The notes under the pieces were generated by a model. That model saw only the letters and a list, made by a program, of their open reading frames with translations, made no database searches and had not been told where the DNA came from. A program made the position numbers and the translations under genes. From a virus, in the UHGV virus genome UHGV-0134334: DNA of 12,902 nt. One strand, given 5' to 3'. Shown piece by piece: positions 1,667-10,483 of this stretch; the stretch's first letter is position 1, and each line of letters opens with the position of its first letter.

Positions 1667-2050
1667 TTACCTCGCTGTCAGTTGCTTTGATTTCCGGTAG
1701 CCTGCCGCGTAAATGGCTACGTTTGGAAGACATACACCAGTTTCTGGTTGCTTATGTCCAAACTCATTCGCGTACACAATGGCCGCTCTCTCCAGATTGC
1801 GTCTGTATTCTTTCTGTTGCCAGATCACGTCCTGTGCCATGAACTTAATTGGCTTAGCGTCTTCTATGCGCTCAGGCGTTTCGTGAGTACCTTTAGCCTG
1901 AATCTGCGCTCTGCTTAGAGTAGGGCGGTGTAATACTTCTGAACTTATTGCTTCTTCGCGGGCCAGTACGCCGTTAGCTAATGCCTTTGCCTTTAAACGC
2001 TCACGACGACGAGAACGTGAATTGCCTTTGAACTGAGTTCTGCGTGTCAT
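1667..2050 (-). CDS. N-type transcription antitermination protein, P22 gp24-like
   Basis: The 127-aa ORF has an arginine-rich N-terminal motif (..GNSRSRRRERLKAK..) and a C-terminus (..VAIYAAGYRKSKQLTAR) closely resembling the P22 gene 24 product (..ALYAAGHRKSKQITAR). It sits downstream of pL with a GACAA-loop boxB in its leader. Confidence 0.75.
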   Translation of the reverse strand: MTRRTQFKGNSRSRRRERLKAKALANGVLAREEAISSEVLHRPTLSRAQIQAKGTHETPERIEDAKPIKFMAQDVIWQQKEYRRNLERAAIVYANEFGHKQPETGVCLPNVAIYAAGYRKSKQLTAR

Positions 2051-2311
2051 ATAGACCTCCTGATGAACTTTGGTGGTGTGGTGGCTGGTAGTCTAGCTCC
2101 AGCTTGTTGAGTCTCATTCGGAGGGGTATAACCGGCACCCCAGCGATTTTTCCATGCGACAACGTGCGCGTTATGGCGGCCTTATCGCCCGCGGCTCCCC
2201 ATCTCGTCCACGCTATTGCTAGCGTTGGGAGCGCTTCACCGCTCAACAGTAGGTAAGCACTTGCCAGTGACTAGCTGGCTTCACCACACCCCAAAGTTCA
2301 CTTTGGTTATT

Positions 2312-2326
2312 GCGCTTTGTCAGCGC
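2312..2326 (-). promoter_or_regulatory. nutL boxB RNA hairpin, P22 type (GCGCU-GACAA-AGCGC)
   Basis: Minus strand reads GCGCTGACAAAGCGC: a 5-bp stem with a GACAA pentaloop, the P22-type boxB, in the pL leader about 65 nt downstream of the predicted pL start. Confidence 0.6.
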
Positions 2327-2387
2327 CGTAGATTCTTGCTTGAATCGTTGTATATTCACCGCCCTGGTGAGTAGTGCGTCCTGCTGA

Positions 2388-2457
2388 TGTGTTTATTATC
2401 ACCGCCAGTGGTATTTATGTCAACACCGCCAGAGATAATTTATCACCGCAGATGGTT
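2388..2457 (-). promoter_or_regulatory. Lambda-type OL1-OL2-OL3 operators with the pL promoter
   Basis: Exact lambda operator sequences: TATCACCGCCAGTGGTA (2397-2413), CAACACCGCCAGAGATA (2421-2437) and TATCACCGCAGATGGTT (2441-2457). On the minus strand the -35 TTGACA and -10 GATAAT direct transcription leftward toward N. Confidence 0.85.
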
Positions 2458-2610
2458 ATCTGTATGTTTTTTATATATATTTATTTTTTGCAGGGGTGTG
2501 TGGCTTGGGAGGTGATCGAGAGATCTGAATTGCGATGTTTAGTGAGTTGTATCTATTAATTTTCAAATAAATACAATTGGTTATGTGTTATTGGGTGAAG
2601 GGGATCGTGA

Positions 2611-2640
2611 GGCAAAGAAAACCCGGCGCTGAGGCCGGGT
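2611..2640 (-). terminator. Rho-independent terminator ending the cI-ORF145-ORF123 operon
   Basis: Minus-strand hairpin ACCCGGC-CUCAGC-GCCGGGU followed by UUUCUUUG, 7 nt after the ORF123 stop. Confidence 0.5.
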
Positions 2641-2646
2641 TGTGTG

Positions 2647-3018
2647 TTACTTAAGAACGAGTCCGTTTAAGGCATCAAGGATTTTGGAAACATAACTTCC
2701 AAAAATGTAGGCGCAAAATGCGAACACGAAACTGACAACGACCGCAGATGCCTTGATGGTGATTTTTGCTGAGCTAATGCTTGTCTCAATACCTGACAGA
2801 CGAGAATCTACAGATTTTATATCTGACTTTACTTCAGCGAGATCGCGCTTGATGTATTCAACATCAGACTCTAGCTTTGCAACTCTAGCCTCAAGCATGT
2901 TACCTCCGCCGTTTCCTCCACCATGCCGTGAGTATGCATCATCAGTGGAATAGTGTCCAATTGGGCGAGATATGTTTTGATTTGGACGAAGCTGAGCAAC
3001 CTTGTTATCTAAACTCAT
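2647..3018 (-). CDS. Small membrane protein with a Gly-rich motif (HGGGNGGGN), a coiled coil and a C-terminal transmembrane anchor; accessory gene occupying the position lambda uses for rexB
   Basis: 123-aa ORF with a hydrophobic C-terminal helix (..ASAVVVSFVFAFCAYIFGSYV..), last gene of the cI operon. A strong internal SD (GGAGGT) precedes the in-frame ATG at 2898, giving an alternative 83-aa form. Paralogous to ORF 9198..9533. Confidence 0.55.
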   Translation of the reverse strand: MSLDNKVAQLRPNQNISRPIGHYSTDDAYSRHGGGNGGGNMLEARVAKLESDVEYIKRDLAEVKSDIKSVDSRLSGIETSISSAKITIKASAVVVSFVFAFCAYIFGSYVSKILDALNGLVLK

Positions 3019-3442
3019 CGCGAACTGATCCTGTTATCTTCACGTCAAAAAACGAACTTTTTACATCAATTACTTCGCCTTTATCAGGATTAACCAGTGA
3101 TGCTCTGACTTCGAATATCCCAGGCTTGATAATTTTCACCCTTGGGAAGTTAATTCTCATAGAAGTTGATACGATGGTTTCTCCATCGTTGGCTTCTGCT
3201 ACCGTAAAAAACTTATGGTTGGAGTACAGTTTTGTGTCAATTGGTATCGGTATTTCTTGAGCATTGAAAACCTCAATGCCTATGGAATATTTTTTTGTAG
3301 CCTTAAGGCCGATAAAAAAAGCGCCAAATGATAGATCCACTTCATGGGAGTCTTTATCCATTTCATAGATAAGAACTGGAGTTACTGGGTTGCCTTCATC
3401 CATCGCAATCGGAATGATATAAGAAATACGTTCTTTAATCAT
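3005..3442 (-). CDS. Hypothetical soluble protein (145 aa); accessory gene occupying the position lambda uses for rexA
   Basis: ORF starts 8 nt downstream of the cI stop and overlaps ORF123 by 14 nt. AT-rich relative to cI. No transmembrane segment and no recognisable family. Confidence 0.55.
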   Translation of the reverse strand: MIKERISYIIPIAMDEGNPVTPVLIYEMDKDSHEVDLSFGAFFIGLKATKKYSIGIEVFNAQEIPIPIDTKLYSNHKFFTVAEANDGETIVSTSMRINFPRVKIIKPGIFEVRASLVNPDKGEVIDVKSSFFDVKITGSVRDEFR

Positions 3443-3449
3443 TTACGTG

Positions 3450-4166
<717 letters not shown>

Positions 4167-4173
4167 TTAAATC

Positions 4174-4239
4174 TATCACCGCAAGGGATAAATATCTAAC
4201 ACCGTGCGTGTTGACTATTTTACCTCTGGCGGTGATAAT
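4174..4239. promoter_or_regulatory. Lambda OR3-OR2-OR1 operators with divergent pRM and pR promoters
   Basis: TATCACCGCAAGGGATA (OR3), TAACACCGTGCGTGTTG (OR2) and TACCTCTGGCGGTGATA (OR1), with pR -35 TTGACT and -10 GATAAT. The cro RBS (TAAGGAGGT) follows. Confidence 0.9.
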
Positions 4240-4254
4240 GGTTGCATGTACTAA

Positions 4255-4464
<210 letters not shown>

Positions 4465-5078: not shown

Positions 5079-5970
5079 CATATCTAATCTAGCCGAAGCC
5101 AGAGAGGCCAGAAGGCTACAACAACCGCATCAAAGCAGCGGTAAGGGGTATGCCTTGCTGCACCGTAAAATTATGGATGTGCCGTTTTACAAGGACGCAG
5201 AAGCTGCGCATCTGTGGGTTCACTTAATCCTCAAAGCAAAGCATACGCCTGAGTATGTAATGACTGACGCAGGAGAAATTCTGGTAGGCAGAGGGAAGCT
5301 ACTTGGCGGTAGAAACTCTCTGGCGTTTGAAACAGGACTCAAACCAGATCGCGTTCAGTACCTGCTTAGAAAGTTCAAAAAACTCGGCATGATTGACTGG
5401 GTTTCACACGGTAGATTCTCAGTTTTCTCGGTAGAGAAATATGACGATTATCAGTCAAATTTTGTACCAGCAGATTACCAGCAAATTACCACCTCAAAGC
5501 CAGAAATACCAATGCCTGTAAGCAATACTGTACCAGCAGATTACCAGCAAATTACCACAGATAAAGAATATAATAATATTATCTCTAATACTGACGTATT
5601 AGAGAGTGCCACAGCAGACAAAAAGTCTGACAAGAAAAAACCTTCCGTTAGCTGTCAGGATATTGTCGATGCTTACCACGAAATCCTTCCTGAAGCGCCA
5701 AAAATCCGCGCACTGAATGACAAGCGTAAAAACCAGATCCGAACGTTCTGGCGCAAAGCCGGAGTGATAACCCGCCAGCTTGACGGGCATGGGTTCACGA
5801 TGCAGGACTGGAGAAATTATTTGAGCTACGTAGGCGAAAATTGCCGATGGATGTTCGAAGAACGCCCAAACCATCAACGCGGAACCGTCTGGCACAAAAA
5901 GGGATTTGATTTCCTGCTTAACGACAATACCTACCTGAAAGTTCGTGAGGGTGAACACGATGACCGATAA
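5071..5970 (+). CDS. Replication initiator, lambda O / P22 gp18-like, containing the origin iterons
   Basis: 299-aa ORF in the position of O/gene 18, after cII and before a DnaB-like helicase gene. It has internal iterons plus an AT-rich tract, and a strong RBS (AAGGAG). Confidence 0.6.
5464..5595. repeat. Candidate replication origin: four 12-bp iterons (CAGCAGATTACC / CAGCAAATTACC, twice) followed by an AT-rich tract
   Basis: The 29-bp segment GTACCAGCAGATTACCAGCAAATTACCAC occurs at 5464-5492 and again at 5530-5558, each holding two 12-mer sub-repeats. AGATAAAGAATATAATAATATTATCTCTAATA follows. The arrangement matches ori-lambda, which lies inside O. Confidence 0.55.
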
Positions 5971-6376
5971 TTTTTATGCGCCGCCCCATAGCATCGAGGC
6001 AGAGCAGGCGGTGATTGGTGGATTGCTTCTGGATGATGACAGCAGTGAGCGCGTCCAGAAAGTTCTGGCGATGCTGAAGCCTGATTCATTTTACAGCCGA
6101 CCACACAAAATCCTTTTCGAAGAGATAACCAGAATGCACCGGGAGCAAAAGCCAGTAGATGGCCTGACGCTTTTCGATGAACTGGAGCGTAAATCGTTAA
6201 CGGCGTCTGTTGGCGGTTTTGCTTATATCGCTGAGATCGCAAAGAACACGCCAAGCGCCGCAAACATCGTTGCCTATGCAATGCAGGTTCGCGAAACCGC
6301 AATGGAACGCTACGCCATCAACCGCATGACTGAAGCGACGGAATTGCTCTACGCGAAGGTGAGCAAGTGCAGGTAA
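5960..6376 (+). pseudogene. DnaB-family replicative helicase (P22 gene 12-like), N-terminal domain only, 3'-truncated
   Basis: The translation (..PPHSIEAEQAVIGGLLLDD..FYSRPHKILFEEI..SVGGFAYIAEIAKNTPSAANIVAYAMQVRE..) aligns with the N-terminal domain of E. coli DnaB. The ORF ends after about 138 aa with no Walker A or RecA-like domain. Start ATG at 5960 with RBS GAGGG. Confidence 0.7.
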
Positions 6377-8852: not shown

Positions 8853-9176
8853 TTAATCATCCATGGATGGATTGAGCTTATCTCGTGTTGATGTGGCGAT
8901 TTGTCCTACATTCCTAAGCCAAGATTTCAAATCCTTGATATTGTCATTGATTTCATGAATATCTTCTTTTTTTAGTCTGTTAATATTATTCTCAATAATT
9001 TCAATGGATTGCTCAATATCAGATATAGTGAATGATAGTTTGTTCTTCTCATCTTTTATTGAGTTTTTAAGTGCTTCGTTCTCAGTCTTGAGGTCAGATA
9101 TCTTTTGTTTTAAAGATGCCAGTTGGTACTGAACCACAATGAGTGCGATAGCTATCACGATAACTGTTGTATACAC
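8853..9176 (-). CDS. Small membrane protein with an N-terminal transmembrane helix and coiled coil (107 aa); last gene of the mnt operon
   Basis: Hydrophobic N-terminus (MYTTVIVIAIALIVVQYQ) followed by heptad-rich sequence. RBS GGAG 7 nt upstream. AT-rich. Its stop abuts the stop of the convergent ejection-protein gene (TAATTA). Confidence 0.55.
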   Translation of the reverse strand: MYTTVIVIAIALIVVQYQLASLKQKISDLKTENEALKNSIKDEKNKLSFTISDIEQSIEIIENNINRLKKEDIHEINDNIKDLKSWLRNVGQIATSTRDKLNPSMDD

Positions 9177-9197
9177 ACAAATCTCCTTAGTTAGTAG

Positions 9198-9533
9198 CTA
9201 TTTGGTAACCAAGGCAATAAACAGCGGAGCAAGGATTGCAGATATCATGAGGGCGATAAGCCACTTCTGATTCTCGTCCATCTTATCTGCTAGGCGACGC
9301 TCCATTCCGTGCATGTCGCCACGGATGCCAATCAACTCTTTTCTAGTTTCTGATATTAGCTTTTCTTGGTTGGCGGCAATCGTTTCAATGCGGGTCATTC
9401 TACTGTTCATATCTGATCCTCCTCCATAGCCACCTCCATGTGCTGGCTCTTCTGAGTCTTCAATTCCGATGGGGGCAAATTCGCTATTCGGAAAAGGATT
9501 GTCAGCATCGTAAGCCAACTTCAACTTAGACAT
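9198..9533 (-). CDS. Small membrane protein with a Gly-rich motif (HGGGYGGGS), coiled coil and C-terminal transmembrane anchor; paralog of ORF 2647..3018
   Basis: 111-aa ORF with a C-terminal hydrophobic helix (..WLIALMISAILAPLFIALV..) and shared PIG..HGGGxGGG..M motifs with ORF123. The Gly codons (GGAGGAGGA) form an SD before the in-frame ATG. Overlaps the upstream ORF by 8 nt. Confidence 0.55.
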   Translation of the reverse strand: MSKLKLAYDADNPFPNSEFAPIGIEDSEEPAHGGGYGGGSDMNSRMTRIETIAANQEKLISETRKELIGIRGDMHGMERRLADKMDENQKWLIALMISAILAPLFIALVTK

Positions 9534-9891
9534 TGCTGTTTTTCTCCCTTAGATACCAGCTTAACACAACACCTGTGTTGTACTGCATAATGTATCCGCA
9601 ATGCTTGCAAATTACATGATAAGAGTAATTTATTGGGTTGAATGATTCATCTTCGTTTTTTATATATTCACCATAATGGGCATGCCTACCCATGATGTCT
9701 TTTCCATTATCCTGATTTACAAATTGAACTTGAGGGACAACCATTTCAGACTGCCCGCACATTGGGCATTCGTCTGGAACACCTTTAGCTCTCAAGAAAG
9801 AGTCGAGAACCTTTGTAGTTATAGACGATAGCGCCTTGCGATATTCAGCCTCTCGCAGTTGATCGTCTGAGTATCCTGAATTGTCACTCAT
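9526..9891 (-). CDS. Zinc-ribbon protein (two CxxC pairs), translationally coupled to mnt (121 aa)
   Basis: CPMCGQ and CKHCGY motifs about 50 aa apart. The start codon overlaps the mnt stop (ATGA). No recognisable family. Confidence 0.55.
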   Translation of the reverse strand: MSDNSGYSDDQLREAEYRKALSSITTKVLDSFLRAKGVPDECPMCGQSEMVVPQVQFVNQDNGKDIMGRHAHYGEYIKNEDESFNPINYSYHVICKHCGYIMQYNTGVVLSWYLREKNSNV

Positions 9892-10139
9892 TTTTCATCC
9901 TTACCATACATGGTCTTTAGCGTCTCAACATCGCGTTCAAGATCTATCAATCGTGATGCTATAGTTGCAAGGTCTAGTGCTTGAATGTGTTTATTTTTTT
10001 CGGTCCACGCTTCAAGTGCCGCGACCATCTCAGCATTTAATGAACGAGAATTAGCCTCAGCCAGTTCAATAAGACGTTCCTTTATCTCTACAGGAAGCCT
10101 CAGATTCACTTGAGGGTTTTTGTACTTACGATCAGACAT
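9888..10139 (-). CDS. mnt: Mnt-like ribbon-helix-helix repressor (Arc/MetJ superfamily)
   Basis: The 83-aa ORF is the same length as P22 Mnt. Its N-terminal region (..NLRLPVEIKERLIELAEANSRSLNAEMVAAL..) resembles the Mnt/Arc RHH motif and it has a C-terminal coiled coil. It is divergent from arc-ant. Confidence 0.7.
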   Translation of the reverse strand: MSDRKYKNPQVNLRLPVEIKERLIELAEANSRSLNAEMVAALEAWTEKNKHIQALDLATIASRLIDLERDVETLKTMYGKDEK

Positions 10140-10385: not shown

Positions 10386-10418
10386 TTCGCTTGGATGCGG
10401 CAAAGAAATCAAAACAGT

Positions 10419-10450
10419 GAAGCCCCAACTGCGGGAACAGTCAGGGCTTC
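10419..10450. other. Stable hairpin in the arc-ant intergenic region; possible sar-like antisense RNA terminator or attenuator
   Basis: GAAGCCC-(18 nt)-GGGCTTC inverted repeat. On the minus strand it is followed by a T-rich tract (ACTGTTTTGATTTCTTTG). Confidence 0.3.
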
Positions 10451-10483
10451 GGTATCGTAAAACCACGCATAGGAATTAACGAC

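Follow-up and report, generated by a model that had tools for sequence, protein, structure and literature searches.

A two-gene cassette in the rexA–rexB position of a lambdoid prophage remnant, a candidate phage-exclusion module of a modular, repressor-linked family

The viral sequence UHGV-0134334, a stretch of 12,902 nucleotides (nt) analysed in full and referred to here as the window, carries directly behind a cI gene of the lambda type a cassette of two genes in the position that rexA and rexB hold in lambda. The first gene encodes a soluble protein of 145 residues (ORF145) and the second a membrane-anchored coiled-coil protein of 123 residues (ORF123). Judged by sequence comparison, the pair represents a family with a common layout, in which a maintenance repressor, cI or Mnt, is nearly always followed by a soluble partner and then by an anchor protein resembling XhlA; this arrangement would mark genes built for expression in the lysogen. 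A second pair of this kind lies in the same window behind an Mnt-like repressor. We suggest, tentatively and at somewhat short of an even chance, that the cassette is a lysogen-expressed phage-exclusion module acting at the membrane. For more than 60 years textbooks have placed RexAB exclusion in the interval behind cI, from which several unrelated defences are now known.

The cassette and its two proteins

The features that define the cassette are the following.

3450–4163, minus strand: cI repressor of lambda immunity, gene 1 of the operon (237 residues; HTH_3 and Peptidase_S24 domains)
3005–3442, minus strand: ORF145 (145 residues), phrog_5893, homologue of epsilon34 gp45
2647–3018, minus strand: ORF123 (123 residues), phrog_6136, predicted tail-anchored coiled-coil membrane protein
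2923–3018, minus strand: ORF123 residues 1–32, disordered, partner-specific N-terminal tail (N-tail) and putative docking peptide for ORF145
2902–2922, minus strand: Gly-rich motif GGGNGGG of ORF123, residues 33–39 (DNA GGTGGAGGAAACGGCGGAGGT), putative internal Shine–Dalgarno (SD) sequence
2896–2898, minus strand: Met41 codon of ORF123, putative internal start, with conservation of ATG or GTG
2746–2895, minus strand: coiled coil of ORF123, residues 42–91 (heptad repeat; helix in the AlphaFold2 (AF2) model)
2689–2745, minus strand: single C-terminal transmembrane segment (TM) of ORF123, residues 92–110, followed by a 13-residue tail SKILDALNGLVLK
2611–2641, minus strand: terminator hairpin and T-run, equivalent of lambda tImm (hairpin at 2641–2620, terminator scan)

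The cI protein is 99–100% identical to cI of lambda and HK97, and the DNA from 3450/3454 to 4400, which comprises cI and oR/pRM/cro, is 98.3–99.5% identical to that of the two phages. This homology ends at the cI stop codon (3450–3452) and restarts at 2637–2641, which corresponds to the stop codon of lambda rexB. Because the homology breaks at these points, the inserted cassette can be placed at 2642–3449, as a precise swap for rexA–rexB of lambda or gp49–gp48 of HK97. The ATG of ORF145 (3440–3442) lies 7 nt from the cI stop codon, and ORF145 and ORF123 overlap by 14 nt (3005–3018). The hairpin has 8 pairs, 6 of them G–C, and is followed by TTTCTTT; since it lies inside the flank homologous to lambda and HK97 (2279/2356–2641), we take it to be lambda's own tImm, a part of the backbone and not of the cassette. 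The GC content is 40.3% in the cassette and 37.4% in ORF145, compared with 44.7% in the window, 45.7% in cI and 48.1% in the pL flank. An initial annotation of this DNA had described an AT-rich, tightly packed cassette, unrelated to RexA and RexB and ending in a terminator, in the rexA–rexB slot behind a near-lambda cI. Its place and its unrelatedness to RexA/RexB are borne out by the flank homology and by PADLOC. The tight packing stands as well, including the 14-nt overlap, with a trivial correction of the gap to cI from 8 to 7 nt; the terminator is real but belongs to the lambda backbone, and the AT-richness is real but only modest.

In lambda, the pRM (and pRE) transcripts cross cI–rexA–rexB to tImm. 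As there is no space for a promoter or terminator, the natural reading, by homology with lambda, is that the cassette is co-transcribed with cI. Antisense open reading frames (for example 2928–3260, plus strand) are not kept in distant homologues. Other occupants found behind near-identical lambda-type cI genes, in E. coli strains and in phages, are rexAB and HK97 gp48/49; further ones in the same slot are a HigB toxin with a helix-turn-helix (HTH) protein, a P63C-domain protein, an NYN-domain protein and a protein described as 'T2SS GspM-containing'. The flanks are matched by 1,431 of 5,426 E. coli genomes, the whole stretch 2400–4300 by only 15.

ORF145 matches phrog_5893 with positions 1–140 of 140 aligned (E = 8.5e-65). 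This is its sole profile match; no Pfam, NCBIfam or PADLOC 2.0 model matches it. The AF2 model, built on a 19-sequence alignment, is an 8-strand β-sandwich with a predicted local distance difference test score (pLDDT) of 86.6 and a predicted template modelling score (pTM) of 0.82. Its structural matches are those of a generic Ig-like fold and include, at modest scores, the carbohydrate- or lipid-binding sandwiches Wzt-CBD, RhoGDI and MD-2. ORF145 has no signal peptide and no hydrophobic segment and so should be cytoplasmic, and no DNA-binding or known antitoxin domain was detected in it. The family forms 20 clusters at 90% identity, every one of them from Enterobacterales. Among 1.84 billion cluster representatives, 19 are related to ORF145, and no relative is present in the 100,044 species-representative genomes of GTDB. 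Among candidate remote domains, the few long relatives are repeat proteins, β-propeller proteins and adhesin TQ domains, which proved uninformative. Homology to XepA/YomS was also rejected, as neither sequence nor top-ranking structural similarity points to it; the likeness to XepA described below is one of analogy only.

ORF123 matches phrog_6136 with positions 1–120 of 120 aligned (E = 3.6e-46). In its AF2 model residues 1–38 are disordered and residues 39–121 form one long helix. The heptads are uninterrupted over residues 42–91, with 14 of 15 a/d positions hydrophobic in one register, and the Kyte–Doolittle 19-residue maximum of 2.11 is reached at residues 92–110. The 13-residue C-terminal tail is conserved across the family, and G38 and G39 are near-invariant in the family alignment. 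Thus the soluble protein and the protein with Gly-rich motif, coiled coil and C-terminal anchor that had been proposed from the sequence are both supported by AF2, heptads and hydropathy. The model is that of a tail-anchored protein, with its bulk predicted on the cytoplasmic side. The ratio of non-synonymous to synonymous substitution (dN/dS) is 0.07–0.20 for ORF145, whose homologues retain intact frames down to 34% identity, and 0.12–0.44 for the first 45 codons of ORF123. Both are real genes under purifying selection.

Against the Pfam model of XhlA (PF10779), ORF123 reaches 19.3 bits (E = 1.3e-3), below the gathering cut-off of 34.7. XhlA matches at E ≤ 0.01 are found in 29 of 44 members of the ORF123 family (best E = 8.3e-6), and 35 of the 44 match the generic coiled-coil family FlaC_arch. 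The anchor protein also matches PHROG holin and hemolysin families, and its weak similarities all point to lysis-type membrane proteins. In PADLOC-DB 2.0, ORF123 gave only weak matches of coiled-coil type (CorA-like, E = 0.0039; LmuB, E = 0.034). The 'haemolysin' label presumably goes back to the Pfam description, which conflates the short XhlA of Bacillus PBSX with the large XhlA of Xenorhabdus. NCBI calls relatives of ORF123 (P0021, P0022 and others) 'hemolysin XhlA', a name that rests on the sub-threshold Pfam similarity and has prompted speculation about virulence in Mannheimia (PMC4553209).

Repressor linkage, partner classes and a second pair

At 51 of 51 IMG/VR loci, which span relatives of ORF145 from 100% to 34% identity, an ORF123-like gene starts at the 3′ end of the ORF145 homologue, mostly with a short overlap. 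The same pairing occurs in a Dryocola chromosome and in an Edwardsiella-type contig. The short overlaps suggest translational coupling, which would give stoichiometric production. The initial annotation had named co-occurrence of the pair behind other cI-type repressors as a check, and such co-occurrence is indeed what the 51 loci, with their many immunity types, display. The upstream genes fall into 25 distinct types, 20 of them repressor-like (13 HTH plus S24, 4 HTH only and 3 Arc/Mnt), among which are lambda cI, the epsilon34 repressor and other HTH plus S24 proteins. Pairs with a β-sandwich partner stand behind Mnt-type repressors too (loci L089 and L102). At four exceptional upstream types (L094–L097) the preceding gene encodes a small secreted protein or one of the DUF6246 type, not a repressor. 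A Dryocola prophage (L136, 5576–5971) has an extra gene of 131 residues (phrog_13701) between the repressor and the ORF145 homologue, so the operon can carry a third gene.

An alignment of 44 ORF123 relatives separates a conserved core, made up of the Gly-rich motif, a Met, a coiled coil starting (L)EARVAKLESDVEYIKRD and the TM, from an N-tail of ~35 residues that is hypervariable across the family. The N-tail of ORF123 is conserved wherever the partner is ORF145-like. Before the anchor gene there is nearly always, in the same orientation, a gene for a small soluble protein, which belongs to one of three unrelated classes. Among the best 80 of the 153 loci obtained from the 44-sequence alignment, which are not an unbiased sample, the partner is a β-sandwich of the ORF145 type (phrog_5893) at 57, a Zn-ribbon protein (phrog_4293) at 13 and a 90-residue protein (phrog_4231) at 8. 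A Zn-ribbon pair also occurs behind a cI-type repressor (L003). In 36 distinct β-sandwich pairs the identity of the partner correlates with that of the N-tail (Spearman 0.39) and not with that of the core (0.08); the pairs are not independent, and only the contrast between the two values is meaningful. We infer that the soluble partner binds the N-tail of the anchor protein.

The cores have been swapped by recombination. The same N-tail precedes at least six coiled-coil/TM types, and a near-identical ORF145 is found with a different ORF123 core in 2 E. coli genomes (H96, H97) and 6 IMG/VR contigs. Enterobacter phage ENT1 has the core type of the window (71% identical) with another tail and a Zn-ribbon partner. 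In mosaic forms of ORF123 (window 2647–2925) the breakpoint falls close to the Gly-rich motif or to the ARVAKLE segment (L019, L021, L023, L027–L029).

ORF145 and ORF123 had been assigned to a family that could not be placed. By sequence, both are members of the family of gp45/gp44 of Salmonella phage epsilon34, and they correspond to PHROGs 5893 and 6136, with relatives of ORF123 under the NCBI name given above. The epsilon34 protein gp45 is 74% identical to ORF145 (tblastn), and gp44 shares the N-tail and the Gly motif of ORF123 (61% over residues 1–67). Order, overlap and place behind the repressor are as in the window; the same holds for gp40/gp39 of g341c and for NM-3. Epsilon34 differs in its repressor, which is 59% identical and has another N-terminal domain, and in the coiled-coil/TM core of gp44, which is another module. 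The epsilon34 genes were likened to rexA/rexB in 2008, without database matches (Villafane et al., PMC2629481), so the rex analogy for the pair has a published precedent. At the DNA level, a similarity of 73.7% to epsilon34 (L001) extends over window positions 2902–3858 and joins the 5′ part of ORF123, across ORF145, to the C-terminal S24 half of cI in one unbroken run; the epsilon34 repressor is ~80% identical in its C-terminal domain (PMC2629481). This unbroken similarity suggests that the cassette and the protease domain of the repressor can move as one block while DNA-binding domains are exchanged.

The second pair lies in the immI region of the window (8853–10139).

9888–10139, minus strand: Mnt-like maintenance repressor of Arc fold, head of the second operon (PF03869 Arc, E = 3e-10)
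9526–9891, minus strand: ORF121, Zn-ribbon soluble partner (phrog_4293, E = 3.6e-31)
9198–9533, minus strand: ORF111, XhlA-like anchor with GGGYGGG-SDM, coiled coil and TM at 92–110 (phrog_6324, E = 6.7e-29)
8853–9176, minus strand: ORF107, N-terminal TM and coiled coil (phrog_5962; 33% GC), 21 nt past ORF111
10416–10482, minus strand: sar RNA (Rfam RF00262, 76.6 bits), between the arc-like and ant genes

ORF121 overlaps the mnt-like gene by 4 nt and ORF111 by 8 nt, and it shares 35% identity (E = 2e-18) with the ENT1 protein encoded between the repressor and the XhlA-like gene. The phrog_6324 family is matched by ORF123 too (E = 6.6e-15), and BLASTP aligns ORF111 with ORF123 collinearly over 101 residues (E = 0.004); by these matches ORF111 is a distant paralogue of ORF123. 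Its score against the XhlA model PF10779 is 20.7 bits and hence also below the cut-off of 34.7. In P22, sar RNA is the antisense regulator of ant, and its presence identifies the region as a true immI region. ORF121, ORF111 and ORF107 lie downstream of mnt, in the interval bounded by mnt and gene 16 that in P22 contains orf59a and sieA. Of the complete E. coli genomes, 10 carry the full region of the second pair and 246 carry parts of it.

The Gly codons of ORF123 and the following start read GGTGGAGGAAACGGCGGAGGTAAC-ATG in the window and are SD-like. Predicted pairing with the anti-SD of the 16S 3′ end at this motif is −10.8 kcal/mol in the window, with a mean of −10.6 over 37 contexts, and −12.1 kcal/mol at the internal site of ORF111, compared with −3 to −4 kcal/mol at the starts annotated for cI, ORF145 and ORF123. 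A Met follows the Gly-rich motif within 1–3 residues in 43 of 46 distinct homologues, and ATG or GTG stands at the Met41 position in 45 of the 46. Three independent lineages have Val at this position, encoded by GTG in all three; GTG makes up 12% of Val codons in these genes (p ∼ 0.002). In locus L102 a frameshift removes the N-tail, and the stretch of Gly codons and the ATG are kept directly before an intact core frame. On the strength of the SD-like Gly codons, the conserved ATG or GTG and their retention in L102, we predict that ORF123 is made as two products, one of 123 residues and one of ~83 residues that comprises the coiled coil and TM only. The XhlA protein of PBSX has 89 residues, which is close to the predicted short isoform.

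Possible functions of the pair

The cassette is best explained as a mobile accessory operon (a 'moron') whose two genes are coupled in translation and probably transcribed in the lysogen from pRM through cI to tImm. ORF145 would dock on the disordered N-tail of ORF123 and, if the pair excludes other phages, act as a specificity or control subunit. ORF123 would sit on the inner side of the cytoplasmic membrane, fixed by its C-terminal anchor, and oligomerize via its long coiled coil, with the XhlA-like coiled-coil/TM core as the membrane effector, probably also made alone as the ~83-residue isoform. On superinfection the core may perturb the membrane, for instance by cooperating with or prematurely triggering the holin of the invader, which would result in premature lysis. 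Such a course would be akin to that of lactococcal AbiZ. Alternatively, the core might depolarize the cell in the manner attributed to RexB, restrained by ORF145 and the long isoform, or it might block genome entry. Position, anatomy, the linkage of the genes to each other and to repressors, modularity and purifying selection are observed, whereas co-transcription, the ORF145–ORF123 contact, the short isoform and any anti-phage activity are inferences.

Guilt by position applies twice in the window, as the β-sandwich pair lies in the RexAB slot and the Zn-ribbon pair in the orf59a/sieA position. Both pairs are kept in a degraded prophage remnant (see below), which supports the exclusion reading. 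A variable specificity subunit on a common effector would also resemble a typical design of immune systems. The exact replacement of rexA–rexB and the linkage of the two genes to each other and to repressors speak for the same reading, as do the lysis-type similarities of the anchor, the conserved internal SD with ATG or GTG, which recalls dual-start holin/antiholin genes, and the record of the slot as a defence hotspot. With lambda RexAB the pair shares the slot and the transcription unit (cI to tImm), the orientation with cI and the combination of a soluble with a membrane protein. Homology to RexAB was rejected: no RexA or RexB model is among the PADLOC matches, and homology to lambda DNA is absent within the cassette. 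RexB is a polytopic membrane protein, unlike ORF123 with its one C-terminal TM and coiled coil, and ORF145, a β-sandwich of 145 residues, differs from RexA, which has 279.

The rex slot was reportedly described as mosaic by Degnan et al. in 2007, and unknown cassettes in it have been on record since 2007–2008. The interval between cI and N is a mosaic hotspot and variable defence locus that can hold RexAB, BstA or HigBAC, the last two being proven defences (PMC8585504; 10.1101/2024.02.24.581848). BstA, HigBAC and HK97 gp48/gp49 share the slot with the cassette and presumably the promoter, but their proteins and mechanisms are unrelated to ORF145/ORF123. SieA of P22 is an inner-membrane exclusion protein of ~160 residues with three predicted TMs that is expressed from the prophage (PMC10883804). 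No similarity to SieA was detected; ORF123, ORF111 and ORF107 each have a single TM, and SieA acts alone.

Several observations weigh against exclusion as the function. With 16 carriers among 5,426 complete E. coli genomes the cassette is rare; both proteins are absent from 72,556 plasmid records and, as far as observed, from DNA other than prophage immunity regions. Genuine defence systems mostly travel on plasmids and in defence islands too. No PADLOC 2.0 or NCBIfam model matches ORF145 or ORF123, and the similarity to XhlA is sub-threshold and stands alongside generic coiled-coil matches. For the internal start, a control of synonymous Gly runs gave −9.2 compared with −10.6 kcal/mol, so that codon choice adds little; the use of GTG for Val is the more informative result. 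Finally, a membrane effector pre-loaded in the lysogen raises a problem of self-immunity when the prophage itself is induced. No searchable paper links XhlA-type proteins to anti-phage activity. Overall, what the initial annotation had observed is confirmed, whereas its interpretation as a candidate exclusion or abortive-infection module is supported in part.

We also put forward a broader and more doubtful proposal, which we consider rather unlikely as it stands: the pairs may form a modular class of membrane immunity in lambdoid and P22-like prophages of Enterobacterales, perhaps also of Pasteurellaceae, in which a dual-isoform XhlA-like effector, a repurposed holin co-factor, is combined with swappable specificity subunits. 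It would abort or exclude superinfecting phages, for instance by setting off their holins early. The cytosolic subunits (β-sandwich, Zn-ribbon or 90-residue protein) would each bind a matching N-terminal tail, and the class would plug into any available maintenance-repressor operon, cI or Mnt. In lambda-like prophages of Mannheimia, a one-TM 'XhlA-domain' gene lies directly beside cI (PMC4553209). The searchable literature, which does not include Degnan 2007 and Brenes & Laub 2025, holds no precedent for a modular family with three partners, nor for the linkage to both cI and Mnt, two pairs in one remnant or the dual start. If such a class exists, its effector would be of a new type derived from lysis machinery, accessory immunity genes could be sought behind maintenance repressors of any kind, whether Mnt or cI, and GGGNGGG would be conserved partly as codons of a ribosome-binding site. 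The misleading 'haemolysin' annotation, a source of virulence speculation, would then be corrected. At less than 0.8 kb the cassette is a compact and experimentally tractable candidate, with enteropathogenic E. coli (EPEC) strain E2348/69 and phage epsilon34, both in laboratory use, as natural carriers.

Among the other functions to be weighed, all of them improbable in our view, the one that survives best is an accessory role in the lysis or induction of the phage's own cycle. The anchor would be a holin co-factor or an antiholin-like timer, with the partner as its regulator, pre-loaded during lysogeny for correct timing of lysis after induction or for buffering spontaneous holin expression. 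The similarities of the anchor are all to lysis-cassette membrane proteins (XhlA and holin PHROGs), and the PBSX group of XhlA, XepA, XhlB and XlyA offers a close analogy. XhlA of PBSX combines a coiled coil and a C-terminal TM in a small protein, a layout that the ORF123 core (41–123) fits, with a 40-residue N-tail as an extra, and the predicted ~83-residue isoform would be XhlA-sized. In PBSX, xepA, which encodes a soluble 4+4 β-sandwich, directly precedes xhlA (PMC6834076), paralleling the order ORF145, ORF123. XhlA of PBSX is a membrane protein that lysis requires and that has the holin XhlB as its partner (PMC6834076, PMC5589764). A second start of the kind predicted for ORF123 is typical of holin/antiholin genes such as lambda S107/S105 and P22 13/13′, in which two in-frame starts give a longer regulatory and a shorter membrane-active form; the putative ORF123 isoforms, however, differ by 40 residues and not by 2–3, and the extension is matched to a separate partner. 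The family is also strictly phage-bound, with no plasmid copies.

The location of the genes speaks against such a role. They are never found in a lysis cassette; ORF123 is encoded in the repressor operon, and induction shuts such operons off. The intact E2348/69 prophage has a full holin/endolysin/spanin set on its other arm, at a distance of ~8 kb, and the window has retained its pairs though the lysis genes are deleted. Moreover, the slot freely swaps the pair with rexAB, toxin–antitoxin (TA) systems and other genes. This free exchange argues for a function that is dispensable for the lytic cycle.

Slightly less probable again is a stabilizer of the TA kind, in which the short isoform would be a toxin neutralized by ORF145 and the long isoform, such that loss of the prophage, or of expression from the repressor operon, kills or arrests the cell; it might double as abortive infection. 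A small upstream neutralizer overlapping a downstream effector resembles type II TA operons, whose order and overlap ORF145/ORF123 fit, and HigBA/HigBAC are other occupants of the slot (H48; 10.1101/2024.02.24.581848). That a degraded prophage has kept the pair would suit addiction, and the predicted short isoform is without the partner-binding tail. ORF145, though, has neither a DNA-binding nor a known antitoxin domain, no TA or PADLOC model matches, and in L102 the core frame persists without the tail, a state in which a constitutively toxic short form would kill the cell. Should the pair serve the phage's own lysis or addiction, this would still explain why degraded prophages keep immunity operons.

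Less likely still, in our view, is a role in lysogenic conversion that has no bearing on phages and concerns envelope physiology, stress tolerance or virulence, the literal 'haemolysin' reading included. Conversion genes do use expression from repressor operons, the cassette is present in EPEC E2348/69, and the modest likeness of ORF145 to Wzt-CBD, RhoGDI and MD-2 would suit an envelope role. The authors of the epsilon34 study placed genes 44/45 under lysogenic conversion (PMC2629481), and a virulence role was proposed for the Mannheimia XhlA-domain gene beside cI (PMC4553209). Yet both proteins face the cytoplasm, no signal peptide is present, and ORF123 exposes at most 13 residues on the outside; the structural matches of ORF145 are generic. 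Hypervariable, partner-matched N-tails and swapped cores look driven by conflict rather than by housekeeping. A secreted or surface haemolysin was rejected as implausible on topology, given the single C-terminal TM and the cytoplasmic bulk. A functionless hitch-hiker, selfish or decaying filler kept by linkage to cI, would fit the rarity of the cassette and its lack of known domains, but it is very improbable and largely refuted by conservation: the low dN/dS of ORF145, frames intact to 34% identity, a confident fold, and an overlap layout and motifs conserved across at least 25 repressor contexts.

The prophage remnant around the cassette

The window is a P22-like/lambdoid prophage remnant of ~12 kb adjoining a LysR-type gene. 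Apart from the two operons described above, its layout is as follows, in window order.

36–767: LysR-type gene, dsdC-like
Before the N-like gene: AlpA/Xis-like gene and two small open reading frames
1667–2050, minus strand: N-like antiterminator, then pL/oL
2395–2423, minus strand: pL-like promoter TTGACA-17-GATAAT with oL operators (11/12 consensus), homologous to lambda oL/pL
Beyond cI: cro, cII and a replication gene
5945–6376: DnaB helicase, N-terminal domain only
Abruptly abutting the DnaB fragment: DNA-ejection protein genes, then the immI region
After the P22-type immI (mnt-like, arc-like, sar RNA, ant): start of the tailspike gene

By its sequence, pL/oL would mark the end of the immunity transcription unit. 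Because the truncated DnaB gene abuts the ejection-protein genes, the nin, Q, lysis and head genes appear to have been deleted; matches to other genomes begin at 6350. Both repressor operons survive in the remnant with their accessory pairs, and replication, lysis and head genes are lost. The window in its entirety is matched in none of the 5,426 complete E. coli genomes, in which its parts do occur. Between N and the xis-like gene, the early-left arm has shrunk to two small open reading frames, compared with ~10 kb in the E2348/69 prophage. The immunity region (2279–4400) is 99.7% identical to that of this intact P22-like prophage of EPEC E2348/69.

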